IMG/VR virus record: IMGVR_UViG_3300038300_000071
Coordinates: 64,001 to 128,000 of that record
DNA length: 64,000 bases
Direction: 5' to 3' (one strand)
From: a virus
Taxonomy: Duplodnaviria > Caudoviricetes
How positions within the stretch are numbered: position 1 is the stretch's first letter; each line of letters starts with the position of its first letter. Shown here piece after piece: positions 2,951 to 22,635 of the stretch. The position numbers were made by a program, and so were the translations under genes. The notes under the pieces were generated by a model. The model was not told where the DNA came from. It worked only from the letters and a program-made list of their open reading frames with translations, and did not search any database.

Positions 2951-4123
2951 ATGATTGTATACAAGTGTTTAAAAACATTCTTCTGCTCGCAGCTTAAAAG
3001 ATATATAGCTATAGATGCGATTGTTTATAGGTATGAGAATTCCACTAAGATAAATATAAATGGCTCTCCTTATACTGACTCAACAACTCAAGTTACATCA
3101 AACAGTTGGGAATTCGAAGATGAAACAGAAGTAACATGGTTCTACGAGCTTGAACCAGCTCCGAAAGGAACGTCTCTGTCAGGATTTTTTGAGTTTGTAA
3201 CGTATCTTCCAGAAGATGAAGCAGGCGGTGGTATTGGGGCTGGAACTGGCCCTGCTGGAGATATGATTTACATTGGGGATATTTTAGTTAGTGGAGATTT
3301 CCCAGATCTAATCGATAGAAGAATAGGCGATGTGTATCTAGTAGAAGCTCCCGTAACAGATCCAGAAACTGGTAATGATTATACTAATAATCAAACAATC
3401 ATGTGGGATGGGACTGAGTACGTAATTATAGGATTGTCTGATATTGAGGCAACTTCGTCAAATGAAAGAATAATAGAGCAGACTGCTCATGGATTCTCTC
3501 TTGGGGATATTGTAAGAATAGATTCGGTAACTGATTCATATGTTCTTGCGCAGTCTGATACTGATGTCAATTCGGAAGCAGCAGGAATGGTTACATTTAT
3601 AACAGACGTAGATCATTTTACCCTTACGACAGATGGATATTTTGACTTAACTGGATCTGGAGCCTCTGCGCTTCCTCTGGATATAGGATGTGTTTATTTC
3701 TTAAGCACAACCGTCGCAGGAGGAGTTCAGTTGACCTCTCCTAGTTTTGTTGGACAAATAACAAAGCCAATATTCTTATCTGAAACTGCAAACACTGGTT
3801 ACATTAGAATAATGAGAGGAGTTGAAATACTTCCTGCTCCTACAATTGTAGATGATGAATCTGACAGTGGTTACTTGGATATTGGTGATGCTAGAATTCA
3901 GTGGGGAAGAACTTCTTCAACTTTAGATACTGGCGAAACAATAGCATTCAATGTTCCGTTTGGAGTTGTGCCAGTTGTAACGACCACTTTAGAGCATCTT
4001 GGAAGCGAGGGCGGTGGAATATCAAGCATTACTGTTAATGACTTTATATATAATAGAGATGATGCTGTGGCAAATCCGGCATTTATTCATTGGCATGCTG
4101 TTGGTAAAAAGCCTATAGTGTAA
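2951..4123 (+). CDS. Probable tail fibre/structural protein
   Basis: QTAHGFSLGD and YFLSTTVAG motifs; C-terminal IQWG...IAFNVPF...WHAVG (gp53-like/H-lectin-like fibre domain). Confidence 0.55.
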   Translation: MIVYKCLKTFFCSQLKRYIAIDAIVYRYENSTKININGSPYTDSTTQVTSNSWEFEDETEVTWFYELEPAPKGTSLSGFFEFVTYLPEDEAGGGIGAGTGPAGDMIYIGDILVSGDFPDLIDRRIGDVYLVEAPVTDPETGNDYTNNQTIMWDGTEYVIIGLSDIEATSSNERIIEQTAHGFSLGDIVRIDSVTDSYVLAQSDTDVNSEAAGMVTFITDVDHFTLTTDGYFDLTGSGASALPLDIGCVYFLSTTVAGGVQLTSPSFVGQITKPIFLSETANTGYIRIMRGVEILPAPTIVDDESDSGYLDIGDARIQWGRTSSTLDTGETIAFNVPFGVVPVVTTTLEHLGSEGGGISSITVNDFIYNRDDAVANPAFIHWHAVGKKPIV

Positions 4124-4140
4124 AAAGTTTAATAAAAAGT

Positions 4141-4169
4141 TTGACATGTAAAGAAGTTAGAAGTATACT
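4141..4169 (+). promoter_or_regulatory. sigma70-type promoter of tRNA operon 1
   Basis: TTGACA-17 nt-TATACT. Confidence 0.85.
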
Positions 4170-4206
4170 GTAGTTATAAATTTAAAAAAATTAATGAGTA
4201 GATATA

Positions 4207-4287
4207 ATGAAAAGCCAAGTGATAGTCATAGATAGAGTGAGACGACAGGATTCTGATCGTCAAGTTCTGCGTGTGTCTAATGGCTAA
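4207..4287 (+). CDS. Leader peptide of tRNA operon 1 (MKSQVIVIDRVRRQDSDRQVLRVSNG)
   Basis: 26-codon ORF between promoter and terminator; 18 of codons 4-23 are Val/Ile(ATA)/Asp/Arg/Gln, the tRNAs encoded downstream. Confidence 0.8.
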   Translation: MKSQVIVIDRVRRQDSDRQVLRVSNG

Positions 4288-4310
4288 GTTATAAATCTAC
4301 ATTATTTTTA

Positions 4311-4349
4311 AAAAGCCCTTAGATGTAAAAATCTAAGGGCTTTTTTTTT
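4311..4349 (+). terminator. Attenuator terminator upstream of tRNA operon 1
   Basis: AAAAGCCCTTAGAT-loop-ATCTAAGGGC followed by T9. Confidence 0.9.
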
Positions 4350-4395
4350 GGATTGATTTGACTTAGTATGAAAGAAGGATAAAGTAAGTAAATAA

Positions 4396-4469
4396 GCACG
4401 AGTAGCTCAATTGGTTAGAGCATCTGGTTTACACCCAGAAGGTTGTGGGTTCGAGTCCCTCTTCGTGTA
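4396..4469 (+). tRNA. tRNA-Val(TAC)
   Basis: Cloverleaf; TCTGG-TTTACAC-CCAGA anticodon arm; TTCGAGT T-loop. Confidence 0.92.
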
Positions 4470-4478
4470 TTTAAAGAG

Positions 4479-4551
4479 GCAGCTATGGTGAAATGGATTA
4501 TCACCTTTCTCTACGAAAGAAAAGTTCTGAGTTCGAATCTCAGTAGCTGTA
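4479..4551 (+). tRNA. tRNA-Arg(ACG)
   Basis: GCAGCTA/TAGCTGT acceptor; TTTCT-CTACGAA-AGAAA anticodon arm. Confidence 0.9.
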
Positions 4552-4627
4552 TTAAAAGTGAAAGAAAGTTAGAATGATAGATTGAAATATTTACAATAGG
4601 ATGTAGTGTAGTTAAAGAAATTTTAAT

Positions 4628-4821
4628 CGATGGATAACTCAATTGGTATGAAGTGAAGAACAGAAAGATATTCTAGAATGTCTTCCTGTAAGTAGCGTAA
4701 TTATTAGATTACTTTTTAGTAGGGTTTGATTCCCTAACTTGATTCGTCAAGATTGTAATCTAATTAGAGTGCCTAGAGTTGTATCTAGGAAGTGGAGGTT
4801 CGAGTCCTTCTCCATCGGCCA
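4628..4821 (+). ncRNA. tRNA-like RNA with ~118-nt structured insertion in the D-loop
   Basis: CGATGGA/TCCATCG acceptor plus G-CCA; ACTC/GAGT D-stem split by 4648-4765; non-canonical CCTAG-AGTTGTAT-CTAGG arm; GGAGG-TTCGAGT-CCTTC T-arm. Confidence 0.7.
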
Positions 4822-4847
4822 TTTTAAAGAAAGAAAAGAATATGTAT

Positions 4848-4922
4848 GCTCCGGTAGCTCAGTTGGATTAGAGCATCTGCCTTCTAAGCAGAAAGTCCTT
4901 GGTTCGAGTCCAAGTCGGAGTA
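4848..4922 (+). tRNA. tRNA-Arg(TCT)
   Basis: Cloverleaf; TCTGC-CTTCTAA-GCAGA anticodon arm. Confidence 0.93.
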
Positions 4923-4946
4923 CTTTTAAGAAAGTAAGGAAAGAAG

Positions 4947-5117
4947 ATGGAATATGTTATTAAGACAGGAATTTATTACTTTATGTTTTCAGGATTGCAC
5001 ACATGTACTACAAATTGTATAGAAGGTGCAACTAAGATTACTAATATAAATCATCTGAATAAAATGCTGAAATATGTCAGTACGAAATTTGAAGATGTGT
5101 CTTACGAGAAGGTGTAG
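4947..5117 (+). CDS. Small hypothetical protein (56 aa)
   Basis: ATG with AAGGA RBS, open to TAG; read by hand, not in the ORF track. Confidence 0.5.
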   Translation: MEYVIKTGIYYFMFSGLHTCTTNCIEGATKITNINHLNKMLKYVSTKFEDVSYEKV

Positions 5118-5308
5118 AAATGAAAGAGATTTATCACTGTTCTTTGACCCGTATGGAAGATCTTTTGAATGCAGTAGATGAAGGATGTTTGTATGTGTAT
5201 GATACTTTCCCCGCATCGTCTTGGAGGGAGAAAGAAGATGAAAGAATGAGAGGGAAGCTGGAAAGACACTTTTCTGGAAAAGGAGATTGATGTAAAGAAT
5301 AAATTTAA

Positions 5309-5382
5309 GGGATTTTAGCTCAGTTGGTTAGAGCGGCGCTCTCATAAAGCGAAGGTCGTGGGTTCGAGTCCCTCAAGTCCCA
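5309..5382 (+). tRNA. tRNA-Ile2(CAT) (lysidine type; Met not excluded)
   Basis: GCGCT-CTCATAA-AGCGA arm; GGG-start acceptor and overall Ile2-like sequence; the operon leader uses ATA codons. Confidence 0.8.
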
Positions 5383-5440
5383 CTTAGCAAGTGAAATGAT
5401 TAATGTGTGATAAAGAATATTATAGATGGAAAGTAGTTCT

Positions 5441-5517
5441 GGGGTTAGAAGGTTTATAAGAAGTAAAAAACCGCATGCGGCATATTTCTTATCTGAGTTC
5501 AAGTCTCAGTAGCTCCA
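5441..5517 (+). ncRNA. Miniature tmRNA-like (tRNA-like-domain-only) RNA
   Basis: GGGGTTA/TAGCTCC acceptor with G3.U70 and discriminator A; no D-stem; 10-bp ATAAGAAGTA/TATTTCTTAT stem; CTGAG-TTCAAGT-CTCAG T-arm. Confidence 0.6.
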
Positions 5518-5519
5518 TT

Positions 5520-5649
5520 AGTTCTAAGAGTACGATGGAAAGTACAGGCAGTGAGTAAGTCCTAAGATGCAGAAGTCGCGAACTGCTGAGAATTCTAGCG
5601 AACGATTCCCCGAAAGGGATGGATATGGGTTCAAATCCCATTGGAACTA
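5520..5649 (+). ncRNA. tRNA-like RNA with expanded anticodon and variable regions
   Basis: AGTTCTA/TGGAACT acceptor; GTAC/GTAC D-stem; GGCAGT/ACTGCT stem with 29-nt loop; ATGGG-TTCAAAT-CCCAT T-arm. Confidence 0.6.
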
Positions 5650-5823
5650 TTAAGGCACTATTACAGGCCTTGTGCGCACAAAAGCGATTAGACTATTATG
5701 CTCTGTCGCAGTATAGGAAGTTATGAAATGGGATTATGGCGTCGTATCATGATTTTAGGAAGTAATTTTTGAAATACTTATATTGCATAGCAGCGGCGGT
5801 TGTAAGCGGTATAAGTATATTTT

Positions 5824-5897
5824 GGCGATGTAGCTCAATTGGCTAGAGCACTGCCCTGTCACGGCAGACGTTGCGGGTTCGAATCCCGTCATTGCCG
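5824..5897 (+). tRNA. tRNA-Asp(GTC)
   Basis: Cloverleaf; CTGCC-CTGTCAC-GGCAG anticodon arm. Confidence 0.93.
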
Positions 5898-5919
5898 CTT
5901 TTAAGTAAAGGAAGGTGTT

Positions 5920-6102
5920 ATGGAAGTTAAAGCAGAAAGATTCTATAGGGATCAGATACGATTGGGACTTTATAAGCTACCAAGTGGATGGTTGGATAAG
6001 TTTGATAGAATATATGGCTCTGTCGAAAAAGTACCTGTTGATAAGTTGGATTCAGCTTTAGGTTTGGTAGAGAGAAGTTTGTTAAGTTTAAAAATTAAAT
6101 AG
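5920..6102 (+). CDS. Hypothetical protein
   Basis: ORF with GAAGG RBS. Confidence 0.55.
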   Translation: MEVKAERFYRDQIRLGLYKLPSGWLDKFDRIYGSVEKVPVDKLDSALGLVERSLLSLKIK

Positions 6103-6114
6103 TAGGTTGAGTTT

Positions 6115-6666
6115 ATGTTTGTAGAATCAGGTGATCATGTTCATAGTTTTGGTTGGATTGGAGTTCCTATTGAAGGAACTCAAAAGGATATGCTGTTGTC
6201 GATAGCGAATAAGATAGACAAGGAAGATTTATTCGAAGAAGACGATGATACTGGAATCGAAGAAGATAGCCATGTGACAGTTCTTTATGGAGTTCATGAT
6301 AAACAGAATTTCAAAGTAAAGGCATTGCTTGGATCTGTATTGCAAATGAATGGAGAGCTTGTAGGACTTCATATATTTGAAAATGAAAGATATGATGTTT
6401 TGGTCGTTAAGGTTGAAAGCGAAGACCTGAAAGATTTAAACAAAAAGTTGAAAGACGGTCTTAAGTATACTAATGACTATCCAGAATATAAGGCACATGC
6501 TACAGTCGCATACCTGAAGTCTGGAACAGGGAAAAAGTATGTAGAAGATTTTAAGAAAGTCGATTGCGTGTTTGATAGAGTTTTTTACAACAATTCTGAC
6601 AATACGCACAACGAGAAGATTGAGCTTAAGAAGAATGACATTGATGAAATGTTGAAAGGAATTTAA
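6115..6666 (+). CDS. 2H phosphoesterase, Acb1/T4 gp57B-like (possible anti-CBASS)
   Basis: Two HxT motifs: HVTVLYG and YPEYKAHATVAY. Confidence 0.75.
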   Translation: MFVESGDHVHSFGWIGVPIEGTQKDMLLSIANKIDKEDLFEEDDDTGIEEDSHVTVLYGVHDKQNFKVKALLGSVLQMNGELVGLHIFENERYDVLVVKVESEDLKDLNKKLKDGLKYTNDYPEYKAHATVAYLKSGTGKKYVEDFKKVDCVFDRVFYNNSDNTHNEKIELKKNDIDEMLKGI

Positions 6667-6676
6667 AAGTATTCAT

Positions 6677-6748
6677 TGCTCTGTGGTGTAATTGGTAACA
6701 CTTTGCCTTTTGACGGCAACATTACAGGTTCAAGCCCTGTCGGAGCAT
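6677..6748 (+). tRNA. tRNA-Gln(TTG)
   Basis: TGCTCTG/CGGAGCA acceptor; TTGCC-TTTTGAC-GGCAA anticodon arm. Confidence 0.9.
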
Positions 6749-6766
6749 TATAATAAAAGGAATAAG

Positions 6767-6988
6767 ATGATTGTTAATGTCAGATTTGAAAAGAATGAAG
6801 AATATAAAGAGTTTGAAGTTGAGATAGGTGAAAATGAGCATGTGGAAAATACAAACACTATACCGATCAAATTATATTCCGAGATAACGCAAGATCAATT
6901 AGACTCTGTGGTTGGAAAAGCAAATAAAATGCTGGAAGGAACTGATTGGGATTCTCCAGATGCTTATTTCGTAAATTACTGGCTATAA
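6767..6988 (+). CDS. Hypothetical protein
   Basis: Start moved to ATG 6767 (AAGGA RBS), downstream of tRNA-Gln. Confidence 0.6.
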   Translation: MIVNVRFEKNEEYKEFEVEIGENEHVENTNTIPIKLYSEITQDQLDSVVGKANKMLEGTDWDSPDAYFVNYWL

Positions 6989-7059
6989 GTAGAGCGTTGG
7001 AAGCGTTTGCAATTTGTGTAAGAGCTGTTAAAGTAAGATGAAATTAAATAAAAGAAAGG

Positions 7060-7839
7060 ATGGCTATGATACTATTGCATGGTGACTGTTTAAAGGAGAT
7101 GGAAAATATTGAGAGTGGATCTATTGATTTGGTTTTGGCAGATCCACCTTACGGAACGACAAATTGTAAGTGGGATTCAATAATTCCACTTGGGCCAATG
7201 TGGCAGCAATTGAAAAGAATTGTTAAGCCTACGGGCGCTATCGTTTTAATGGGGAATGAACCATTTACTTCAATGTTAGTATGTAGTAATATTAACGAAT
7301 TTAAGTATCGCTGGGTGTGGGAGAAAAATAAATCTACAGGCTTTTTAAATGCTAAGAAACAGCCTTTAAGATGCATTGAAGATGTTTGTGTTTTCTATAG
7401 AAAGCAATGCACTTATAATCCTCAGAAGACATTTGGCCATAAGCCTGTCAATAGTTTCAAGAAGAATACTGGCGATGGCGAAACAATGGGAAAGACAAAG
7501 ATTGGCATTTCCGGTGGTGGTCAAACTGACAGATACCCTAAAAACATTATTAAGAATATCAGAGTGATGAATAATGATGGAAGTCATGGCAAAAAGACTA
7601 ACGCAACTCAGAAGCCAGTAAAGCTTATGGAGTATCTTATCAAAACTTATTCTAACGAGAATGATAAAGTGTTAGATTTTGCCATGGGAAGCGGTACAAC
7701 TGCGATTGCTTGTCTAAACACAAAGAGAAGCTTTATCGGTATAGAACTTGAAGCAGATGGCTTTAAAGATGCCTCAGAAAGAATAGAGGCTCATGCTAAG
7801 ACAATTGATTCTGCCCCAAAAGTATCGTATATTTTATAG
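7060..7839 (+). CDS. DNA methyltransferase (N6-adenine/N4-cytosine, beta class)
   Basis: DPPY catalytic motif, TQKP, VLDFAMGSGTT SAM-binding motif. Confidence 0.92.
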   Translation: MAMILLHGDCLKEMENIESGSIDLVLADPPYGTTNCKWDSIIPLGPMWQQLKRIVKPTGAIVLMGNEPFTSMLVCSNINEFKYRWVWEKNKSTGFLNAKKQPLRCIEDVCVFYRKQCTYNPQKTFGHKPVNSFKKNTGDGETMGKTKIGISGGGQTDRYPKNIIKNIRVMNNDGSHGKKTNATQKPVKLMEYLIKTYSNENDKVLDFAMGSGTTAIACLNTKRSFIGIELEADGFKDASERIEAHAKTIDSAPKVSYIL

Positions 7840-7905
7840 AAGTATTGTAAAATCAAAAGGAGTGTGAACTTATGAAGATCTAATAATCAACATAAGGAGT
7901 CCCAG

Positions 7906-8283
7906 ATGGGGAATACATATAAGAATAAATCACATACTGGATATTATAGGCGTTGCAGAGGACATAAGAAGGCAAGGATAAACAAGGCGAGGAGTATTCC
8001 TCCTGATGGTTGGGCTGAAGAAAGATGGCCTTGTAATATAAACAATATACCTTGGATTATCGTTGAGAGAATGTTTAATGATGGTTGGCCTGAGTATGAA
8101 GCTTTTGAAAGAGTAATGAGAAAGTGCAGGATCAGCAGGAGTAAGGCATCGGATATAACGAAGTTTTTCTACCATAGAATGCGATGGTATAGAAAAGGAA
8201 AGCCTGAACCTGATAATAAAACTCCAGAAGGATATTTAAAAGTTTGGAGAATAACAAGAGTTAAGGTAAATAAATACAAATAA
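7906..8283 (+). CDS. Hypothetical basic protein
   Basis: ORF with TAAGGAG RBS. Confidence 0.6.
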   Translation: MGNTYKNKSHTGYYRRCRGHKKARINKARSIPPDGWAEERWPCNINNIPWIIVERMFNDGWPEYEAFERVMRKCRISRSKASDITKFFYHRMRWYRKGKPEPDNKTPEGYLKVWRITRVKVNKYK

Positions 8284-8670
8284 ATAAAGGGTCATGCTGA
8301 AAAGTGTGGCCTTTTATATTTCAATAGGAATGGATATGGCTGTAGATTGCTTGGGAAGAGATATGAAGGTTGGAGATTGGGTTTCTTATACAAACACATG
8401 GCAGGCTGCTGATGTGAGAGTTGGTAAAATATCGATAATAAGAGATAAGCGTAAAGATGGAAAGCCAAGAGTTCATGCAGAGATCACAATATCTGGAATA
8501 GAGGGATATTGTACAAACGTAAATAGAAGTGGATATATATGCTTAATGGAGGCTCCCTTTGACAAGTTGAAAGGAGCGCTTGGAGTGGGAGATAAGTATA
8601 AGATGTAGTTGTATATTTTTTCAATATTTGGGAAGTATTGGAATGTATAACAACAGAAAGGGGTAGTAAG

Positions 8671-9342
8671 ATGTTAAAAGGAATAAGTTTAAATATACTT
8701 TTTGCCTTCTTCATAGCAATGTTCAGCTCTTCTGCTGGAATTATCACTCTTGACTCGGATGCAAGTCTTTCCAGTGTGGGAAATTACACTAAAACCAAAA
8801 TAAAGAAACCGAAGAGCGAGGTGTTTACTTATGGCTCTGGGATCGCTAGTGTATTCAAAACTGGAAAGCCGAAAAAGGGAGATGCGACACCAGAGAGCGA
8901 ATCAAGAGCTTATTTTGTTTTCGATTTATCCGAGGTGACTACCGAGATACTGAATGCTAGTATTGATTTCAGCGGCAGCGGTGATATTTTGAACTTTGAG
9001 TTTTTTCAAGTTAAATCAAATATAGAAGATTTGCGAGATGGGGTCGGAAGCGGTGCTCAGTTTGAGGAGTTTTATGATGACTTAGGGAAAGGCGTAAGAT
9101 ATGCAAATGGTAAAAGCACTAGCTTTAACTTCGATTCAGCATTGATTGATATGAATAATACCAGAAGTCTAGGAAGTTCTTTATTTGCCTTTGGTGTAAA
9201 GAGTAAAGATAAGAAATACTTCCTCTTTGAAAATGTCAAACTAACCTTGACGACTGCGGTTCCTGAGCCTAGAGAAATCCTTCTTCTCCTGACAGGTGTC
9301 ATTTCAGTGTTTCTCCTCCGCCGTAAGAAATCATTGGCTTAA
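8671..9342 (+). CDS. PEP-CTERM sorting-domain surface protein
   Basis: N-terminal signal peptide; C-terminal VPEP, transmembrane helix, RRKK. Confidence 0.88.
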   Translation: MLKGISLNILFAFFIAMFSSSAGIITLDSDASLSSVGNYTKTKIKKPKSEVFTYGSGIASVFKTGKPKKGDATPESESRAYFVFDLSEVTTEILNASIDFSGSGDILNFEFFQVKSNIEDLRDGVGSGAQFEEFYDDLGKGVRYANGKSTSFNFDSALIDMNNTRSLGSSLFAFGVKSKDKKYFLFENVKLTLTTAVPEPREILLLLTGVISVFLLRRKKSLA

Positions 9343-9425
9343 GTGTTATTGAGATATTTCCTTGGTATATTTTTTCAATATTTAGGGGTTGTTGACAGAT
9401 ATTAACTACAACAAGGGATGAAAAG

Positions 9426-9866
9426 ATGTTAAAAGGGATGGTAATGTTTATATTGGTTGCATTTATTGCTTCCAGCTTAACTTCATGCGGTATTATGCAG
9501 ATCACTCCGGGTCTTACTGGAAGCGGTGTTTATGAGCTAGGAGAAATAGGTGGTGTTAAGTATTACACTGTTCACTCTAGCCATATTGCAGGCCCAAATC
9601 AGACTGTAATGGTTTCACACGACACGCTTAAAGAAGGAGCAAGGCCTGTTAATATCGCTGTTAATGGCGGAGAAGGAATTGGCAAGTCTATTGTGGGAGC
9701 AGTTGGAAGTGTTGGATCTTCTTATGTGTTCGGAAAGTCTTTAAAGCCATCGAGTGAGAGCTCTTCTGTTGATGTGTCGGGAGGAAATGCTGCAGGAGGC
9801 GATGGAGGTAGTTCAACTTCCAGAGGTGGAAACGCAACTTCCAGAAATACCAACAATAATAGATAG
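9426..9866 (+). CDS. Lipoprotein
   Basis: Hydrophobic signal peptide with LTSC lipobox; Gly/Ser-rich tail. Confidence 0.7.
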   Translation: MLKGMVMFILVAFIASSLTSCGIMQITPGLTGSGVYELGEIGGVKYYTVHSSHIAGPNQTVMVSHDTLKEGARPVNIAVNGGEGIGKSIVGAVGSVGSSYVFGKSLKPSSESSSVDVSGGNAAGGDGGSSTSRGGNATSRNTNNNR

Positions 9867-9884
9867 AAATTAAATTAAAGAGTC

Positions 9885-9913
9885 AAAAGGCCCCACCTTG
9901 GTTGGGGCCTTTT
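9885..9913 (+). terminator. Intrinsic terminator
   Basis: AAAAGGCCCCA-loop-TGGGGCCTTTT. Confidence 0.8.
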
Positions 9914-10252
9914 GTTTGAACCTGTTTAATGGGTGATAATTGCACTACAAATACTTAGAGTGAAAACAGCGGATATTTAGACATATTGAGAAAATTATAG
10001 GATGAAAAACCTGTATGTAAGATGTTAGTTTGCAGTTAATTGTAATCATATCAGATTTTCCTAAAAATTTCCTATTATTATAAGTAGTATTCATACCGTC
10101 CAAGGCCTGCGCCATTTATTAGCTCCATATCTTTCGTAAAAAAATAAGAAATCTAGGACACTGAGATAAAATATATCAATAGACAAATTAAAATCCTCAA
10201 CAACGCAGTGCATGTTAGATTTAATAAGAGAAAATTCGTACAGGAGAGAAGA

Positions 10253-11068
10253 ATGCAGTTGATAAAAAAAACAAACGAACACGTTAGAAGATTAAAATCT
10301 CGACTTACTGGGATTGATTATCAGCTTGTCTTTGGTGGGGCTGTCAGAGATTCATTAATGGAAAGAAGTTACCAAGACGTAGATTTATTTTTCACAGACA
10401 GGACAAAATATATAAACACTGTGGGAAGATTGTGTGAAGAGGGATATTCGATAGTAGAGTTGTGCAGGAGAAAGTGGTCAAAGAATTTCATTTGTTTGTT
10501 CGGCAGGTATGAGAAAGAAAACCGTTTTAATAAATCGGGAAAAGAATTTGTAGATGTGATGTTGTTTGATTGCACAGAGGAAGAGTTAATTGCAGATTTC
10601 AAGTTGAGTTTTGATTTTGGTGTAAACGTGTGTTATATGAAAGATGGCGAAATTTATGCAAGTGACAGGTGCTTAAGTGAAATAGAGGATGGTGGTGTTT
10701 TAGAATTAGTGTCTGATAAAATTTCAATAGGGAACTGTATTGTAAGGGCTGAAAAGTTTCGAAGCAGAGGTTTTAAAGTCGGATCTAGTGTGATTGGATA
10801 TATTATAAAAGAAATAGAGCTGATGGAGGATTCTCCAGAGGATTACGAAAGTTCGAGATATATTAAGGTTCATGGTGGATATGGAACCTATTGTAATATA
10901 AAAGGCAAAAAGTTATATAGAGATTTTTTTAAACTAATTGACGAGGATACATTAATATTGGCAATGATGAGCAGTAGTGAAAAGATATTAGATTATTCTA
11001 AAAATAATCACAATAAGAAAATCAATAAGAAAGGTGTAGTTTCTAAAATAAGGAATTTGTTTGCATGA
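10253..11068 (+). CDS. Nucleotidyltransferase, CCA-adding/poly(A) polymerase head-like
   Basis: FGGAVRD...DVDLF and FDF motifs; ATG 10253 has an AGGAG RBS. Confidence 0.7.
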   Translation: MQLIKKTNEHVRRLKSRLTGIDYQLVFGGAVRDSLMERSYQDVDLFFTDRTKYINTVGRLCEEGYSIVELCRRKWSKNFICLFGRYEKENRFNKSGKEFVDVMLFDCTEEELIADFKLSFDFGVNVCYMKDGEIYASDRCLSEIEDGGVLELVSDKISIGNCIVRAEKFRSRGFKVGSSVIGYIIKEIELMEDSPEDYESSRYIKVHGGYGTYCNIKGKKLYRDFFKLIDEDTLILAMMSSSEKILDYSKNNHNKKINKKGVVSKIRNLFA

Positions 11069-11943
11069 AATACAACGCAGAGGTTATAAGTATAGAGGAG
11101 GTCAGTGAAAATCTAAGAATATTTAGAATAAAGCCTGATTTCCCTGTCAATAGTTATGAAGCTGGCCAATATACCACTTTGGGGTTAGATGGGAGCGAAG
11201 CTAGAGTACCAAGAGCGCAAAAGGAAGAGTTGGCCGAGGGAATGCTTAATAAAGTCCAAAAGAGGGCTTACAGCATATCTTCTCCGGTTTTCAAAGAGGA
11301 TCATGATTTGGTAGATCATAATGAATTGGATTATTTAGAGTTCTATATTTCATTAGTACCAGTTGGGCACAAGAGTTATCCTCCTTATTTGACTCCGAGA
11401 TTGTTTATGCTTAAGGAAGGCGATAGAGTAAACATGGGAAAGAAGATAACGGGTAATTATCTTTTAGGAGATGTAGATGATAAAGATACGATTATATTTA
11501 TATCTACTGGAACTGGATTGGCTCCTCATAACCCGATGTTGTCAAAGTTGCTAAGAGATGGGCATGAGGGGAAAATAGTTATAGTTGAGTGTAATCGTTA
11601 TAGCTGTGAGTTTGGCTATAGTACGCAGATAGAAGAAATTGTCGAATCTTATCCTAACGTGTTTCATGAAGTAATGATTACATCAGAGCGCGAAGATTAT
11701 TACATACAGAATTTATTTTCTGAGAATGTTTTAGAGGATAAGTATGATTTCAAGATTGAGGCGAAGAATACAAAAGTGTATCTTTGCGGAAGTCCTAGAA
11801 TGATTGGCGCTCCTAAGTTGGTAGATGGCAAAGAAGTATTTGACAACAAAGATGGAATGGTTTCACTCCTTCAGTCAAAGTATGGATTAAAGTCTAATTA
11901 TGAAAATGACGAAGGTCAGATTAATTTTGAGAAGTATTGGTAA
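11065..11943 (+). CDS. fpr: Ferredoxin-NADP+ reductase
   Basis: GQY, RAYSISS, STGTGLAP, YLCGSP and C-terminal EKYW motifs. Confidence 0.9.
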   Translation: MKYNAEVISIEEVSENLRIFRIKPDFPVNSYEAGQYTTLGLDGSEARVPRAQKEELAEGMLNKVQKRAYSISSPVFKEDHDLVDHNELDYLEFYISLVPVGHKSYPPYLTPRLFMLKEGDRVNMGKKITGNYLLGDVDDKDTIIFISTGTGLAPHNPMLSKLLRDGHEGKIVIVECNRYSCEFGYSTQIEEIVESYPNVFHEVMITSEREDYYIQNLFSENVLEDKYDFKIEAKNTKVYLCGSPRMIGAPKLVDGKEVFDNKDGMVSLLQSKYGLKSNYENDEGQINFEKYW

Positions 11944-12240
11944 GAGTGTAAATGGGAGTAGAAACATGGAGAGAGTAGAATTGAAGTTGAAAGATTGTGA
12001 TTTAGATGCAGTTGATCTAGATGGTGGTTGTTGGGGCTTTGGAAGTATGTATGGCAATGATTGGCATATATATCATGTAGATGATCATCTTAACGAAACC
12101 TCCTATGCCTTCCCTGAGTGGTTAAACGATTTGATTAATGCTAAATACAATCAAGGATCGGATGATAAAGTGAGCGAGATAAGAAAGGCTTTAAATCTGT
12201 GAGAAGGTGGAAGTTTTAAATTTAACATATTTTAAATAAA

Positions 12241-12282
12241 AAAACCCTTTTTAGTGAGTTATTAACTAAAGAGGGTTTTTTT
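12241..12282 (+). terminator. Intrinsic terminator
   Basis: AAAACCCTTTTTAGT...ACTAAAGAGGGTTTTTTT. Confidence 0.65.
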
Positions 12283-12687
12283 GTGGACAAAATGACAGTA
12301 TTAAATGGGATAGCGGCCATCAGCAGCATGAATGATAAATTCCAATATATAATAAATTTAGCGAAAGCGGCAGATGGTCTAGATGATTCAGAGAAGGTTC
12401 ACAAATATAAGATAAGAGGATGCAATTCCAAATTGTGGTTAGTTCCTAAGTTTGAGAATGGTCTTGTTGAGTTCAGAGTGGATGGTGAGGCGATGATACC
12501 TAAAGGAATAGGAATTATATTAGCCTTGGCTTATTCTGGGATGACGCCTGATGAAGTTATTGGAAAAGATCCTATCTTTTTAACTCAGTACGGGATAACT
12601 CATCACTTGACAGCCAGTCGTAGAAACGTCCTCAGTGGATTATACAAACAGATGAAATATTATGCTTCTGCTTATAAGAACATGTAA
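12283..12687 (+). CDS. sufE: SufE family Fe-S cluster sulfur acceptor
   Basis: IRGCNSKLWL, DGEAMIPKG and HLTASRRN motifs. Confidence 0.85.
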   Translation: MDKMTVLNGIAAISSMNDKFQYIINLAKAADGLDDSEKVHKYKIRGCNSKLWLVPKFENGLVEFRVDGEAMIPKGIGIILALAYSGMTPDEVIGKDPIFLTQYGITHHLTASRRNVLSGLYKQMKYYASAYKNM

Positions 12688-13090
12688 GGCCTCGGATTGA
12701 ATTGTCATTGTTTAGAGGATATATTAAGAGTGAATACAAGTGTGCTGAATTAGAATTCGTATGAATAAAACTTTTATTTTATTCCTTTTTATACGGGTGC
12801 TTACTTTTTTAGGATAAAATTAAATATATAATCTATCATTTTAAAAGGATCGGAGGCATACAATGAACTTGCATAGCGCAATTGGTGATCTATGTTCATC
12901 GTGCGAAGAAGTTGGGAGATTATCTCAAGCTATTGATCTTATGTACGCAAAGAACGAAATTGAAGACGTATATTCAAAAGAAGAAGTTTCAAAGAGGGAG
13001 TCGGAAGTCCATGTTAAGATTTGCAGATGTAATAATCTTAGGGTTGAGATTGAAGGTTTCATCAAGGCGGAATTAAAACGAGGCGGGTGA

Positions 13091-13465
13091 ATGCAATCTG
13101 GAAATGTAGTTAGATGTCTGAGGGCCGAGTCAGCAATTGATCCTTATGGCAGTTCTTATGAGAAGACAGGATTAAAGGATGGCGCATATTATTTGGTAAT
13201 ATTGAATTCTAATGAAAAGTTGAAGTTATTTGGAGTTAGAGGATATTTCAAGAAGGATTTATTTGAGCTCAAACATGATGTGGAGTATCATTCTCTTCCT
13301 TGGTTTAAGAAAGATTATTCTAAATGTGGGAATTGGGTTCTTGTTGATGGGATGAATTGGAGGTTTAAATATTCTTCCAACACTTACGGAGGCCCAGATT
13401 ATCCTAAGATAAAGAACGCATTGTTTGTAGACCCTCATTCAGTAGAGAGAGTGTGCGAAAGTTAA
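13091..13465 (+). CDS. Hypothetical protein
   Basis: ORF in a tightly packed + strand run (12863-14311). Confidence 0.55.
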   Translation: MQSGNVVRCLRAESAIDPYGSSYEKTGLKDGAYYLVILNSNEKLKLFGVRGYFKKDLFELKHDVEYHSLPWFKKDYSKCGNWVLVDGMNWRFKYSSNTYGGPDYPKIKNALFVDPHSVERVCES

Positions 13466-14337
13466 GAATTTGAGTTATTGTTCGTATAGTTGTATGTGAG
13501 TATAATTGGAATTGAAGGAATTGATGATGGCGCTTGGTAATGGATTAGACGTGTCTTGCTTTAACTACATTGGAGGGAATTTAACTTCAATGCCTTCGGA
13601 GGTGGAAGTTGCCTACACGAACAAGATAAAAAATTTAAATAAGATGGTATCGGTTTTATCAGAGGAAGTGGATTTGGATAAATTCGATAAAAGTTTCAAA
13701 GGCAATATAGAGGAAGTTTTAGAAGAACGCTACAGAGATAAGATAGAAGGCCATGAGTCTTTAATCAATTTATTGAAGGGTGAGATTTTAGAACATGAGT
13801 CTCTTATTGATAAAATTAAAAGTTTAGGTGGTGTGGCTGGTGGTGAGTTGCTTGAATCTTACAGATTATGCAAGGGCGAATTGGCAGTTGCGCAAAACAT
13901 AAAAGAGAAGGATTTATGATGTCAATATTTAAAGATATAAAGCTATTGGATGCTCTTGAAAGCGGGTGTATAACTTTACAAATGAAAAATTGTTACTCCA
14001 AAGAGGTTGATTTGGTGTGGAATGGAATAGCGAAGCACATATTTACAGATTTTTATTTCCTAGAGGTTGAGATTGCGGACAGCAAAGATCCGGCAGAAGA
14101 AGTTCAGTATTGGAAGGTATTAAATAAAATCTTCGAAGAAGTAATTGAGATAAATACCAGAAAAGATTTAGTAGCAAACATAATTTATGCAGTTTCTTCA
14201 GGTTATGTTCCGGTTGGAGTTCCAAAGTCATTCCTTGATAACATTGTAAAGTCATACAAAAACCACACAAAAGGCATCGATTTATTTAAAAGAAGAGCTA
14301 AGGATAAATAAAAGATTATATTTTTTCAACAAACAGT

Positions 14338-14366
14338 TTGCAAATTAAGAGTTGTTAAAGTATATT
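14338..14366 (+). promoter_or_regulatory. sigma70-type promoter of tRNA operon 2
   Basis: TTGCAA-17 nt-TATATT. Confidence 0.7.
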
Positions 14367-14410
14367 GTTAAATAACGAAAGATTAAAATTTATTTAAGAG
14401 AAGTAGAAAA

Positions 14411-14497
14411 ATGAAAAACTTTACAGAAAACACAACACATCTAGGCCTTGTACTTCATGGTACGTGGTTTATGGGTTGTATTGGGTTTTCTGAATAA
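14411..14497 (+). CDS. Leader peptide of tRNA operon 2 (MKNFTENTTHLGLVLHGTWFMGCIGFSE)
   Basis: 28-codon ORF between promoter and terminator; 14 of codons 8-22 are Thr/His/Leu/Gly/Trp/Phe/Met, the tRNAs encoded downstream. Confidence 0.8.
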   Translation: MKNFTENTTHLGLVLHGTWFMGCIGFSE

Positions 14498-14523
14498 GTA
14501 TATTTTTACATATATAGTTTTAG

Positions 14524-14557
14524 AAAGCCCTTTGAGAAATCCTCAAAGGGCTTTTTT
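14524..14557 (+). terminator. Attenuator terminator upstream of tRNA operon 2
   Basis: AAAGCCCTTTGAG-loop-CTCAAAGGGCTTTTTT. Confidence 0.9.
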
Positions 14558-14563
14558 GTTTTT

Positions 14564-14636
14564 AGGGAAGTAGCATAATTGGTAGTGCAGTGGATTCCAA
14601 ATCCAAAGGTTGTGAGTTCGAGTCTCTCCTTCCCTG
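14564..14636 (+). tRNA. tRNA-Trp(CCA)
   Basis: AGGGAAG/CTTCCCT acceptor; TGGA-TTCCAAA-TCCA anticodon arm. Confidence 0.9.
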
Positions 14637-14661
14637 CTTAAAGATAAAGGAAAGAAAAAAA

Positions 14662-14937
14662 ATGATTACGATTAAAGATTTTTGCGAGAAGCATGAAATA
14701 GAGAGAAGAGTAGAGAAGTATGGTGATTATAGCGATTTGTATGTGGATATTTGTAAAAGGTATAAATCGGAAGTAGAGGTTTGGTTTGAGATGGGTGCTG
14801 ATGGAAATGATTGCAAGCATATGTTAAGATATTATAAGGAAGGAGATTTGAAGGAATACTTTAAAGAGTTTTATGGTTTTACAGAGGAGATTCCAGAAGG
14901 GATGTTATCTGTAAGTGATAGTGAAGAAGTGGAGTAA
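14662..14937 (+). CDS. Hypothetical protein
   Basis: Start moved to ATG 14662, downstream of tRNA-Trp. Confidence 0.6.
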   Translation: MITIKDFCEKHEIERRVEKYGDYSDLYVDICKRYKSEVEVWFEMGADGNDCKHMLRYYKEGDLKEYFKEFYGFTEEIPEGMLSVSDSEEVE

Positions 14938-14943
14938 AGATAA

Positions 14944-15017
14944 GGCGTGTTAGCTCAGTTCGGTAGAGCGGTTGATTGAAGCCCAACAGGTCACTGGTTC
15001 AAATCCAGTACGCGCCA
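14944..15017 (+). tRNA. tRNA-Phe(GAA)
   Basis: Cloverleaf; TTGAAGC anticodon loop. Confidence 0.9.
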
Positions 15018-15019
15018 CT

Positions 15020-15092
15020 TCCAGAGTAGCCTAATTGGTAAGGCGACAGATTGTGACTCTGTTAATTGCGGGTTCGAGTCCCGTCTCTGGAC
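15020..15092 (+). tRNA. tRNA-His(GTG)
   Basis: ACAGA-TTGTGAC-TCTGT arm; discriminator C; the -1 position is T, so G-1 is not encoded. Confidence 0.9.
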
Positions 15093-15094
15093 TT

Positions 15095-15180
15095 TGGATG
15101 ATGCACGACTGTCTTAAGGCAGTTAGGATAAGGCGCTCCGATATAAAGGAGAGATTCGTTGGTGAAAATCCAGCCATCTA
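15095..15180 (+). ncRNA. Degenerate tRNA-like RNA
   Basis: TGGATG/CATCTA terminal stem; GTTGG-TGAAAAT-CCAGC T-arm-like hairpin; two internal hairpins. Confidence 0.35.
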
Positions 15181-15205
15181 TTTTTTGAAGAAGAAAGAAA
15201 TTTAT

Positions 15206-15278
15206 GCATGTGTAGCTCAGTTGGTAGAGCAATGGATTTGTAACCCATAGGTCAGGAGTTCGAGCCTCCTCTCATGCT
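15206..15278 (+). tRNA. tRNA-Thr(TGT)
   Basis: Cloverleaf; TTTGTAA anticodon loop; one T-T mismatch in the acceptor. Confidence 0.85.
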
Positions 15279-15283
15279 TACAT

Positions 15284-15356
15284 AAGTATGTAGCTCAATT
15301 GGTAGAGCATCTGAATCATAATCAGAATGTTGCAGGTTCGAGTCCTGTCATGCTTA
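15284..15356 (+). tRNA. tRNA-Met(CAT)
   Basis: TCTGA-ATCATAA-TCAGA anticodon arm. Confidence 0.85.
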
Positions 15357-15360
15357 CTAT

Positions 15361-15434
15361 GTCAGTGTAGCTCAATTGGCTAGAGCATCTGGTTGCCAAT
15401 CAGAAGGTTGCAGGTTCGAGTCCTGTCACTGATA
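15361..15434 (+). tRNA. tRNA-Gly(GCC)
   Basis: TCTGG-TTGCCAA-TCAGA anticodon arm. Confidence 0.9.
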
Positions 15435-15483
15435 TTGAAGTTTAGGAAATGTTAAATTAAAATTATTTACATGGGACTTACAG

Positions 15484-15975
15484 ATGCGATCAAAGAAGGG
15501 GTTGACGGCGAAGGATATAACTGCTGGCATATTTAAGCATTTTCATAAGAAGAGCAAGTGGATAATTGAAAGTATCTACTTGCTTTTTGACAGTGAGAGT
15601 GACGTTGTAACGATGTCAAAAGCAGGATATATTACAGAGTATGAGGTAAAAGTTGCGCTGAGTGACTTTAAAAGAGACATGGCAAAGAGGTATAAGATGG
15701 GAAGAGTGTCTAAGAATAAGCATTCTGCGTTATCTAGCGGTAAGACGGGAATAAAGCACTTTTACTTCTGTGGCCCAAAGGATATGATACCTTTAGAGCT
15801 TATACCGAGTCATGCAGGCTTAATGGAATTCTGGAAGCAAGGAGGAAGGGTGAGGTATAGGATTGTAAAGAAAGCTCCTACTCTTGTGAACGCGACTAAG
15901 GCGTCTTTTAAAATGGAGAAGAAAATTATAACTTCTATGAAGTGGAAGTACATGAACAAAGTGATGAAAGAGTAA
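15484..15975 (+). CDS. PD-(D/E)xK nuclease-like protein (MmcB-like)
   Basis: ESDVV...EYEVKVALSDFKRD...FYFCGP...AGL pattern. Confidence 0.65.
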   Translation: MRSKKGLTAKDITAGIFKHFHKKSKWIIESIYLLFDSESDVVTMSKAGYITEYEVKVALSDFKRDMAKRYKMGRVSKNKHSALSSGKTGIKHFYFCGPKDMIPLELIPSHAGLMEFWKQGGRVRYRIVKKAPTLVNATKASFKMEKKIITSMKWKYMNKVMKE

Positions 15976-16074
15976 AAGATGTTGAAGACTAAGAAATAGA
16001 GTGTTAAATTAATATAGTGGAGTTGAAAATTATAGGACTGCCATTATAGTAATTTAGAAATAAGGAAGTTGGCT

Positions 16075-16266
16075 ATGGATTACAATGTAATAGTTTTTAA
16101 AGAGGATGGAGATTTTATTGCAACGTGCAAGGAGATGCCTAGCATTTCGGGAATAGGAGACACAAAGCTGAAGGCAATAGAAGAGTTTCACATTGCAATT
16201 TCTCTTGCAAAAGAGATTATGGATGAGCAGGGAACTCCAATGCCGGAAAGAATTGATGGAGTATAA
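16075..16266 (+). CDS. HicB-like antitoxin domain protein
   Basis: FIATCKEMPSISGIGDT...AIEE...EQGTPMP pattern. Confidence 0.75.
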   Translation: MDYNVIVFKEDGDFIATCKEMPSISGIGDTKLKAIEEFHIAISLAKEIMDEQGTPMPERIDGV

Positions 16267-16722
16267 GTGGTTTTTTTGTTTTCCTTGTGGTGGGCCGTCC
16301 ATGATTTGCATGGATTGCGATGCTTCAATTTGTACAGGAGGTTGTAGGCATGCTACGGAGTTATTTGAAGTTGAGCCTAAGTTTTGGGATGAAGACGACA
16401 CAAAGGACGTGGGAGATATTACACCTAAGAGAGCGAAAGAGTTGATAGGCGAATGGAATGACTATGGAAGGAAGATGAGGAGTGGTTGTCTTGGAATACT
16501 TGAGAAAAAAGAAATATGAGGTGTAGATTGACATGTTGTTCAGATCTCTTGGAAAGGAAGCACTTTGGTTGGGTTCTTAGTCGATCTTGGGATGTTTATC
16601 GCAAGAGGTGTCTTATAGATTTCGAAACTTTAGATGGTGAAAGTTTTACAGTTCCGATTGAAAATCTTTGTGGAGATTCTCCGAGTGGATTTTTGATTGT
16701 GGGAAATAAAGAAGAAATACAC

Positions 16723-16795
16723 GCCAGTGTAGCTCAGTTGGTAGAGCAGGTCACTTGTAATGATCAGGTCAACGGTTCGAATCCGTTCACTGGCT
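16723..16795 (+). tRNA. tRNA-Thr(TGT), second copy
   Basis: GCCAGTG/CACTGGC acceptor; GGTCA-CTTGTAA-TGATC arm. Confidence 0.93.
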
Positions 16796-16818
16796 TTAGG
16801 AAAGAAGGAATAGATTAA

Positions 16819-17046
16819 GTGGTTATAGATGTAGAGATTGATAATTGTTGTGGTGGAGGTCATTGTGGGCCAGTACCCGGATATACTTATGAATGTCCAG
16901 TATGTGAGAAGAGCACGATGTGTAGGACTAGGAATGGACGTGCTCTTGATGTTGATGAAAGTTTAACTTGCTCATTATGCAAGGAAGAAATAACAGTTGT
17001 AGAAGTGTTGAGTGATGGAACATTCGATTTTGATTTTGAATTGTAA
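16819..17046 (+). CDS. Small zinc-finger protein
   Basis: CPVC and CSLC pairs. Confidence 0.55.
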   Translation: MVIDVEIDNCCGGGHCGPVPGYTYECPVCEKSTMCRTRNGRALDVDESLTCSLCKEEITVVEVLSDGTFDFDFEL

Positions 17047-17059
17047 GTAAGTTTATTAT

Positions 17060-17169
17060 GCCGGAGTAGCTTAATTGGTTAGAGCATAAGTGAAGCGCAT
17101 CATCGGAGACTAGTTAATCCTTTGTTGCTAGTATCTTAAAGGTTGCAGGTTCAAGTCCTGCCTCCGGCA
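17060..17169 (+). ncRNA. tRNA-like RNA with 44-nt segment replacing the anticodon loop
   Basis: Perfect GCCGGAG/CTCCGGC acceptor; canonical D- and T-arms; TAAG/CTTA stem enclosing 44 nt. Confidence 0.75.
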
Positions 17170-17191
17170 CTTTTTAGGTAATAAGTTTTAT

Positions 17192-17294
17192 GCGGGAGCC
17201 TGTTGGTTAGGGCTTAGTGAAGAGTATTTTGATGCACCTGGTTAAATCATAATGCAAGTAGCTTTGTACGGGGGTTCGAATCCCTCCTTCTGCT
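17192..17294 (+). ncRNA. tRNA-like RNA with extended central arm
   Basis: GCGGGAG/CTTCTGC acceptor; GGGGG-TTCGAAT-CCCTC T-arm; GTGAAGA...AAGTAGC motif. Confidence 0.6.
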
Positions 17295-17350
17295 TTGGTT
17301 TTAAAGTATAGGCGAATTAAATAAGATATTTTGGGAAAGGGTGAAACTGA

Positions 17351-17986
17351 ATGATTAGTCATAAACATAAGTTTATTTTTTCGCATGTTCCCAAGGTTGC
17401 TGGAACATCGATAGAGATTTCTTTAAGGCCATATGATGATTCTGGCTTTAAGTGGGGATTAAGGAATGATGATTTGGGAAATGCGATTGCAAATCATAAG
17501 GATTATTTTGTATTTGGATTTGTTAGAAATCCTTATGACAGGTTGGTATCGGCGTGGAAGATGTCGAAGGTAAATGGAAAGCATGATATGCCATTTAGGG
17601 ATTATGTGACGTGTGTTGGCAAATTCCTATCTCATGATTATGAAACGTTGATAAAGTTGTACAGAAGTAATAAGTGTTGGAAGAATGGATATCCTTTGAC
17701 GATGAAGGATGCGGGATTTTTAGACCCTGTTCATGATAAGTATCATACTGTATATCAGTGGAACTTTACTTATGGTTGTAAGTTTGTAGGAAGGTATGAG
17801 CGTTTGGATGATGATTTTAAATTGGTATGTGAAGTATTAAAGTTGAATGTTGATGATCTTCGGAGGGGAAATAAGTCTGGGGATGGCAGCAATTACAAAG
17901 AGCATTATGATAAAAATTTGCAATCTCAGGTGTATGAAATGTACAAGCAAGATTTCTTAATGTTTGGTTATCAATACAAGCTGTAG
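17351..17986 (+). CDS. Sulfotransferase family protein
   Basis: FSHVPKVAGTSI, FVRNPYDRLVS, VGRYE motifs. Confidence 0.88.
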   Translation: MISHKHKFIFSHVPKVAGTSIEISLRPYDDSGFKWGLRNDDLGNAIANHKDYFVFGFVRNPYDRLVSAWKMSKVNGKHDMPFRDYVTCVGKFLSHDYETLIKLYRSNKCWKNGYPLTMKDAGFLDPVHDKYHTVYQWNFTYGCKFVGRYERLDDDFKLVCEVLKLNVDDLRRGNKSGDGSNYKEHYDKNLQSQVYEMYKQDFLMFGYQYKL

Positions 17987-18045
17987 TTTGTGCTTAGATA
18001 ATTTTTTTATAATTCTCCAGAAATTATAAAAGGAGATTTAAAAAA

Positions 18046-18210
18046 ATGAAATACGAATGTTTTGATTGCAGTTCAATATTTGACATAGATGCATCCAATG
18101 ATGGAAGTTGTCCAAGTTGTGGAAGTTCTAATGCGGCGCGGTATAATAATGACTATGCTAGATATGATGATGAAGATGAAGAGAGTTATAAAGATGAGTA
18201 TGATGACTAA
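18046..18210 (+). CDS. Small zinc-ribbon protein (54 aa)
   Basis: YECFDC...CPSCGS; AGGAG RBS; read by hand. Confidence 0.65.
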   Translation: MKYECFDCSSIFDIDASNDGSCPSCGSSNAARYNNDYARYDDEDEESYKDEYDD

Positions 18211-18216
18211 GTTTGA

Positions 18217-18291
18217 ACCTCTGTGGGCAAATTGGCAAAGTCGCTCCGTTTAGGCCGGAGAGTTTTCTGGGTTCGAGTCCCAGCAGAGGTA
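18217..18291 (+). tRNA. tRNA-Leu(TAG), short variable loop
   Basis: ACCTCTG/CAGAGGT acceptor; CTCCG-TTTAGGC-CGGAG arm. Confidence 0.88.
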
Positions 18292-18565
18292 TTAAGGAAA
18301 CAATAAGAGGGATGGTGCTGTGAGTGATTGGGGCGATAGAGATGATGACGACTGGTTTAAGGATCGTCAAAGGCAAGGATTAAAGGAGGAGTTAAGCAGG
18401 CCGCAAAAGCTTTGCAAATGGCTGTTGGAAAAAACATTTGTCATGGCTTTTATTGCATTTGTGTTATCGTTTGCAGTGGGAAGTTTAATACCGCTGTGTG
18501 TATTTTTTGCAGTAGAGTCGGCTGCTTTGTTTTATTTGTTAGTATTTAATTAATGTAAAGGCGGT

Positions 18566-19108: not shown

Positions 19109-19156
19109 ATAATCTAATGTTAGTGTTAATTGTTAGTTATTTAATGGGATTGGAAA

Positions 19157-19789: not shown

Positions 19790-19928
19790 TTCAAGGATTG
19801 GGATGCGTTGAGTTTTAATCATAATGAAAGGTGTTTTTGATAATGAATGTGAATTAGTGAAGGTTTAGTTTCTCCCGATGTTTTAGATTTATTAGATTAT
19901 ATAATGAACGAAGTTTAACAGATAGAGA

Positions 19929-20186: not shown

Positions 20187-20267
20187 AAATTTTTAACTTC
20201 TTTGTTGTAGTATATATGGATGTCCGTGGAAGCGGATAAAAATATAAATAAACAAGGAAGAATAAAA

Positions 20268-22634: not shown

Positions 22635-22635
22635 G

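Follow-up and report, generated by a model that had tools for sequence, protein, structure and literature searches.

Amino-acid biosynthesis in enterobacteria is controlled by leader peptides whose translation decides whether transcription continues. The leaders trpL, hisL, leuL, pheL, thrL and ilvL (the last ahead of ilvGMEDA) all combine a short open reading frame (ORF) enriched in particular codons with a terminator, a mutually exclusive antiterminator and a protector hairpin, and in the multivalent cases, thrL and ilvL, a single leader senses several amino acids. The pheM leader attenuator of pheST in Escherichia coli extends the principle to a component of the decoding apparatus, which it controls by the supply of charged transfer RNA (tRNA). 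T-box riboswitches likewise choose between terminator and antiterminator according to the state of a specific tRNA, but they recognize uncharged tRNA themselves, by means of a specifier codon and without a ribosome, and act on synthetase, transport and biosynthesis genes. Here we describe a locus of a large tailed phage in which a leader of this general kind appears to stand ahead of tRNA genes. It occupies positions 4141–6748 of a window of 64,000 nucleotides (nt), bases 64001–128000 of the single 202,452-base-pair (bp) contig IMGVR_UViG_3300038300_000071, and comprises a promoter, a 26-codon ORF, an intrinsic terminator and six tRNA genes (operon 1).

Debate over phage tRNA genes goes back decades, and to our knowledge almost nothing is known about their regulation. 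In the Pseudomonas phages 201phi2-1 and PAK_P3, abundant short RNAs arise by premature termination just 5′ of tRNA genes and have been interpreted as candidate small RNAs (sRNAs) (PMC11512511, PMC10914365). These resemble the locus described here in that transcription stops before a phage tRNA, but the reports mention neither a leader ORF nor a codon match. A full-text literature search found no account of tRNA genes attenuated by a leader peptide, in agreement with the original prediction for this locus, which knew of no attenuator whose output is the sensed tRNAs themselves.

Compared with the trpL/hisL class, the unit ahead of operon 1 (unit C) has the short ORF behind a promoter, the cognate codons, the terminator, the masked antiterminator and the protector hairpin. 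It departs from that class in its regulated genes, which are tRNAs and not amino-acid biosynthesis or synthetase genes. The output of the enterobacterial leaders is biosynthetic enzymes, whereas the tRNAs of the phage unit would act directly on the sensor. The sensor codons of the phage leaders are also spread over ~17–20 codons for five or six amino acids, and four such units partition the whole code. The pheM leader is bacterial and controls the synthetase of one amino acid, whereas the phage units control tRNAs. A T-box stem I with its specifier loop and the conserved T-box sequence had no match in window positions 3500–23000 at E ≤ 1, and an Rfam search found no known leader, T-box or other regulatory family at the locus. 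E. coli pheV, considered as a possible precedent with an attenuator-like leader, was dropped: upstream of the K-12 gene there is only a promoter, without a leader ORF. Strong in silico evidence, presented below, points to a ribosome-mediated attenuator with a new kind of target, tRNA genes.

One unit design stands before each of the four tRNA clusters

The contig, of 37% guanine plus cytosine, encodes a portal protein, a large terminase, GroEL, T4-like baseplate proteins and ~30 tRNAs, a content that identifies it as a large tailed phage. All of its long ORFs lie on one strand. The tRNA genes are grouped in four clusters (A–D) that jointly serve all 20 amino acids; operon 1 is cluster C. The promoter, ORF, terminator and six tRNAs that the original prediction placed in unit C were all recovered at the same coordinates (Table 1). 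The ORF starts ~30 nt past the predicted transcription start of its promoter P1 (~4176), and the terminator hairpin has a calculated energy of −21.3 kcal/mol and a nine-T tail.

This layout is present 5′ of all four clusters: a promoter, an ORF of 25–28 codons, a spacer of 23–30 nt and a strong terminator (−21 to −22 kcal/mol). Across the 202-kb genome, a relaxed P1-type promoter pattern has just six matches on the + (coding) strand, four of them in the leader units. In the units at genome positions 52442, 62278 and 78338 (A, B and D), the first tRNA begins 14, 13 and 6 nt, respectively, past the T-run, gaps so short that these tRNAs can be made only by read-through of the terminator. The corresponding gap in unit C is 46 nt and contains a candidate second promoter, P2; the other units have no room for such a promoter. 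Cluster D continues from tRNA-Trp, 6 nt past its terminator, through Phe, His, Thr, Met and Gly-GCC to 15435.

Table 1 Components of the four leader units and genes of operon 1 (window positions unless marked as genome positions)
Feature	Position	Strand	Details
Promoter P1, TTGACA-17-TATACT	4141–4169	+	11 of 12 consensus positions; best site in 3000–9000
Leader ORF C	4207–4287	+	26 codons + TAA; sensor codons 4–23
Segment 1, protector strand	4213–4230	+	predicted to pair with 4272–4286 in untranslated RNA (minimum-free-energy and centroid structures)
Segment 2, antiterminator 5′ strand	4272–4286	+	spans final five codons and stop
Intrinsic terminator	4310–4349	+	15-bp stem; 5′ arm 4310–4324, 3′ arm 4331–4345, T-run to 4349
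Candidate second promoter P2, TTGACT-16-TAAAGT	4358–4385	+	9 of 12 consensus positions; between terminator and tRNA-Val
tRNA-Val (TAC)	4396–4469	+	
tRNA-Arg (ACG)	4479–4551	+	
tRNA-Arg (TCT)	4848–4923	+	
tRNA with anticodon CAT	5309–5383	+	not initiator; Ile2 proposed, not established
tRNA-Asp (GTC)	5824–5898	+	
tRNA-Gln (TTG)	6677–6748	+	
Unit A	genome 52442–52659		outside the window, upstream
Unit B	genome 62278–62506		outside the window, upstream
Unit D	14338–14557	+	promoter 14338–14366; 28-codon leader 14411–14497; antiterminator strand 14483–14491; terminator 14522–14557

Each leader matches the tRNAs of its own cluster

Codons 4–23 of leader C comprise five Val, five Arg, three Gln, three Asp and two Ile codons. 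These account for 18 of the 20 positions, as had been claimed, and the codon details given for Ile (both ATA) and Arg (AGA twice, CGA once, CGT twice) were also correct. CGA and CGT are rare in the genes of this phage, and the same unit encodes tRNA-Arg(ACG). Under strict wobble rules, 16 of the 25 post-start codons of leader C (64%) can be decoded by anticodons of its cluster, compared to a background of 19% in the long ORFs of the phage (binomial P = 1.4e-6). None of 45,836 windows of the same size (25 codons) in the long ORFs attained the value of leader C. Each of the four leaders ranks first among the 855 small ATG ORFs of the genome for the codons of its own cluster; codon enrichment of the leader was among the checks put forward with the original prediction. 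In a matrix of leaders against clusters, which gives the fraction of codons in a leader that the tRNAs of a cluster can read, the diagonal values were 0.58, 0.71, 0.64 and 0.52 and the off-diagonal values 0–0.19. Based on this matrix, the ranks and the permutation tests described below, we rejected chance as the source of the match.

The original prediction also held that the match in leader C extends to isoacceptors. For the four leaders together this is supported, with 59 of 65 synonymous codons fitting the anticodons present against 47.7 expected from phage usage (P = 1.4e-4); for leader C alone the fit of 16 of 18 is not significant (P = 0.12). The leaders proved informative about the tRNA complement as well. 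Leader B contains four Tyr codons, though no Tyr tRNA had been called initially. These codons predicted a Tyr tRNA, which was then found at the end of cluster B with a lowered ARAGORN threshold; its counterpart in the relatives is detected at the default threshold.

The tRNA with anticodon CAT in cluster C was originally described as Ile2. The anticodon was upheld and the tRNA is not an initiator; the Ile2 identity is a proposal, ARAGORN calling this tRNA Met. Typing by similarity to annotated phage tRNAs, by comparison with the phage's own tRNA-Ile(GAT) and by inspection of the cloverleaf did not decide between Ile2 and Met. ATA is used at 29 per 1000 codons in the phage, which has no tRNA with a UAU anticodon. 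Leader C contains two ATA codons and no internal ATG, and leader D contains ATG and no ATA. We propose that the CAT tRNA of cluster C is Ile2 and reads ATA.

The leader RNA can adopt alternative pairings

Leader C RNA is predicted to fold far more stably than shuffled controls (z = −7.7). In models of the untranslated RNA, the antiterminator strand pairs with codons 3–8 and the terminator also forms, in both the minimum-free-energy (MFE) and the centroid structures. The pairing originally noted between the 3′ end of the leader (4272–4285) and the 5′ part of the terminator (4314–4327) was reproduced by hand, at 13 of 14 positions including three G.U pairs. In four of four units, no stretch of the transcript complements the terminator 5′ arm better than the 3′ end of the ORF. 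Calculated energies of these duplexes in units A–D are −23.8, −10.0, −12.4 and −13.3 kcal/mol (P = 0.0007, 0.29, 0.03 and 0.03 against 3000 random genomic windows), and the antiterminator of unit A is a perfect 12-bp match.

We modelled the ribosome as a 28-nt footprint on the leader RNA. The antiterminator strand was free when the A site lay in the early sensor codons and masked when the ribosome was near the stop codon. Folding with and without a footprint, a check put forward with the original prediction, accordingly gave three states: protector and terminator in the untranslated RNA, antiterminator upon an early stall, and a masked antiterminator near the stop. The prediction that a stall at any of the sensed codons would permit read-through has to be narrowed. 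Early stalls do free the antiterminator in the models, but a ribosome stalled at the last sensor codons (~18–23) would itself cover the antiterminator strand, so that the original wording reaches too far. The stop codon of every unit lies 23–30 nt before the terminator 5′ arm. This distance is too long for a terminating ribosome to block the hairpin, which favours the classical sign of regulation.

Leaders are conserved in close relatives

Two close lineages, represented by L002 and by L004/L025, were recovered through the upstream gp53-like protein (74% and 71% identity), and both keep every leader. A scan of IMG/VR with the same protein gave no matches and it led to no cultured relative; a DNA search with the region returned only generic tRNA similarity. 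In leader C, codons 9–27 are identical at all 19 positions in one lineage and at 18 of them in the other. By comparison, the flanking genes are ~73–76% identical and show 60–75% codon identity where the amino acid is conserved. Terminator C is nearly invariant. The 5′ end of leader C differs in the relatives by a shifted Val codon, which alters the order of Val and Ile and leaves the composition unchanged. Leader B of one relative has seven differences; the four located in its sensor region change the amino acid without leaving the cluster's set of Ser, Asn, Leu, Cys and Tyr.

The relatives also carry a conserved, structured, GC-rich insert of ~130 nt between P1 and leader C (L002:11226–11340, L004:5000–5130) that is not in the window. 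An Rfam search of this insert found nothing credible, and it could be an additional regulatory RNA before the attenuator. L004/L025 has no tRNAs for Phe, His, Thr or Met in this cluster; where tRNA-Trp would follow leader D there is a decayed tRNA with a broken acceptor stem (L025:12706–12790), close to restriction-modification and HNH genes. These features suggest that the tRNA clusters of this lineage were recently eroded. Leader A (genome 52514–52591) ends in TAG followed immediately by TGA, and in TGG-TGA in a relative.

Distant phages follow the same rule with different tRNA blocks

A search with the terminase identified the cultured Tunturiibacter phage Tunturi_5 (28% identity) and the uncultured 485-kb phage LR745208 (34%). 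Both partition their tRNAs otherwise, and both have a short ORF and a terminator ahead of the clusters. The three leaders of Tunturi_5 are rich in codons for Leu/Cys/Ser/Tyr, for Gln/His/Thr/Phe/Ala/Pro/Gly and for Asp/Ile/Arg/Gly/Lys/Val/Trp/Glu/Met, respectively, and each matches the tRNAs downstream of it. When leaders were permuted among clusters, the true assignment came out best, among 6 permutations for Tunturi_5 and 24 for LR745208. The paper describing Tunturi_5 mentions neither leaders nor attenuation. In the unrelated Caulobacter phage phiCbK, leaders follow their own tRNAs in two sub-arrays. Inspection by eye of the phiKZ region upstream of gene 302 and of the tRNA region of PAK_P3, for which premature termination has been published, revealed no clear codon-matched leader. 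Covariation of leaders with tRNA content, expected if the prediction was correct, is thus seen in Tunturi_5, LR745208 and phiCbK, and fails in L004/L025, where tRNAs were lost and leaders kept.

A model for attenuation of tRNA genes, and its competitors

Every sequence-level expectation examined for trp/his-type geometry agreed with the original assignment, from the replication of the unit and the position of the antiterminator to the protector fold and the distant phages. We put a probability of roughly 70% on the units being ribosome-mediated leader-peptide transcription attenuators that regulate tRNA genes and feed back on tRNA supply. The direct basis for this is the architecture, the codon match, the alternative pairings, the conservation and the co-variation between phages, whereas we infer that the leader is translated, and likewise the sign of regulation and the physiological trigger. 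In the model, a host-type RNA polymerase would initiate at P1 and a ribosome would translate the 26-codon leader. Where the ribosome moves fast through the Val, Arg, Ile(ATA), Asp and Gln codons, it would reach the end of the ORF and cover segment 2, the terminator would form and a transcript of ~170 nt would be released. When the cognate charged tRNAs are scarce, decoding would be slow and the ribosome would stall in the first half of the ORF, disrupting the pairing of segments 1 and 2. The freed segment 2 would then pair with the terminator 5′ arm, and polymerase would continue into the tRNA genes. Because the tRNAs produced are those that the leader samples, the loop would constitute negative feedback on decoding capacity.

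Several observations weigh against this model. The Shine-Dalgarno sequences of the leaders are weak, consisting of GAG only, 10–12 nt 5′ of the ATG, compared to AAGGA/AGGAG at the genes of the phage. P2 is kept in L002 and L004, with its −35 and spacing conserved and a −10 (TATAGT) that is nearer consensus. Since P2 lies downstream of the terminator, the operon 1 tRNAs may also bypass the switch, and attenuator C may modulate operon 1 expression and not be its sole control. Among the antiterminators, that of unit B is no better than chance, though in the same position, and in units C and D the antiterminator falls far short of the terminator in strength. For unit C, the MFE models favour the antiterminator only for stalls at codons 1–9 and 11. 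Finally, L004/L025 lacks both Arg tRNAs of cluster C and its cluster D is down to Gly-GCC and a decayed tRNA, with the leaders almost unchanged. Leader and tRNA content are therefore not coupled over short times.

The weak Shine-Dalgarno sites and the conserved P2 would fit a locus without a switch, in which the hairpin is an ordinary, partly leaky terminator for upstream late-gene transcripts and for a short P1 transcript (an sRNA or a micropeptide), with the operon 1 tRNAs made from P2. The reading of short terminated RNAs 5′ of phage tRNAs as sRNAs in 201phi2-1 and PAK_P3 (PMC11512511) is in line with this. We nevertheless find it improbable, as it leaves unexplained why each of four unrelated ORFs carries the codon set of its own cluster, why the same pattern recurs in distant phages and why the ORF 3′ end is complementary to the terminator arm; nor would it serve units A, B and D, which lack space for a second promoter. 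The persistence of leaders in L004/L025 after loss of the matching tRNAs would fit the same switch answering another signal: instead of a shortage of particular tRNAs, the leaders would register a lack of amino acids or a generally slowed translation in the infected cell, and the phage would use this to tune tRNA output to host physiology. As established for trp and his, a leader-peptide attenuator cannot distinguish a missing tRNA from an uncharged one, and leaders for several amino acids recall the multivalent thr and ilv leaders. Extra tRNA would be no relief of starvation, however, so that a cluster-specific match at the isoacceptor level is hard to explain, and the rare CGN Arg codons of leader C fit tRNA-Arg(ACG) and not phage codon usage. 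We consider such a signal unlikely for these units. Codon matching by itself leaves the sign of regulation unfixed, and efficient leader translation might promote read-through, a coupled ribosome suppressing the hairpin or Rho, so that good decoding reinforces tRNA synthesis. The distance between stop codon and terminator arm in all four units makes this very improbable: a terminating ribosome would cover the antiterminator strand instead.

If attenuation with negative feedback is correct, the four units, each with its own codon set, would jointly monitor all 20 amino acids. It is conceivable, if somewhat short of even odds, that large phages keep watch over their entire decoding capacity in separate blocks, each tRNA block being transcribed only when its codons are read slowly, so that tRNA supply is under autogenous feedback control. 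The same tentative standing applies to its corollary, that this logic has arisen or been retained in very different phage lineages, with hosts from Acidobacteriota to Caulobacter.

Other features of the locus and the genome

Three tRNA-like elements in cluster C were called by neither ARAGORN nor Rfam (4629–4812, ~5440–5520 and ~5530–5650). The one at 4629–4812 has a matching acceptor stem, D-arm and T-arm flanking an insert of ~110 nt. It is conserved in L002 (11902–12088), where some of the pairs are compensatory, and may be a tRNA with an intron or of some other unusual kind. A 2H phosphoesterase gene (Acb1/2′,5′-RNA-ligase-like) lies inside the cluster at 6115–6666, near this element. Elsewhere, window positions 17060–17169 gave an Rfam tRNA match of 51.8 bits over 110 nt and an ARAGORN match only with introns allowed; this is a further tRNA that carries an insert.

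Leader D and its terminator (14420–14563) had a sub-threshold match to the Rfam trpB non-coding RNA motif (34.9 bits against a cut-off of 59, E = 0.13). This probably reflects a resemblance to an attenuator-like shape and not membership. A tRNA with the anticodon CTA (amber-reading; Pyl according to ARAGORN) at 21860–21946 has its own promoter and neither leader nor terminator. The window also encodes a queuine tRNA-ribosyltransferase-like protein (139–1038) and the GroEL homologue (28332–29945).

Implications for phage tRNA genes

If confirmed, these units would represent the first cis-regulatory logic described for phage tRNA genes. They would also put classical attenuation to a new use, with a product that acts straight back on its own sensor. 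They would account for the splitting of large-phage tRNAs into fixed blocks. From sequence alone, they would help to delimit tRNA operons and to anticipate tRNAs that are missed or ambiguous, as with the Tyr tRNA that was found and the CAT tRNA proposed to read ATA. Synthetic biology could draw on them as natural sensors of decoding speed that respond to several codons. The presence of the design in the cultured phages Tunturi_5 and phiCbK makes it directly testable. For the phage itself, a block-by-block monitor of decoding, if it exists, would allow the replacement of host tRNAs that are scarce, degraded in takeover or cut by anticodon-nuclease defences. It may be an answer of phages to host defences that deplete tRNAs, the link to host anticodon nucleases being speculation.

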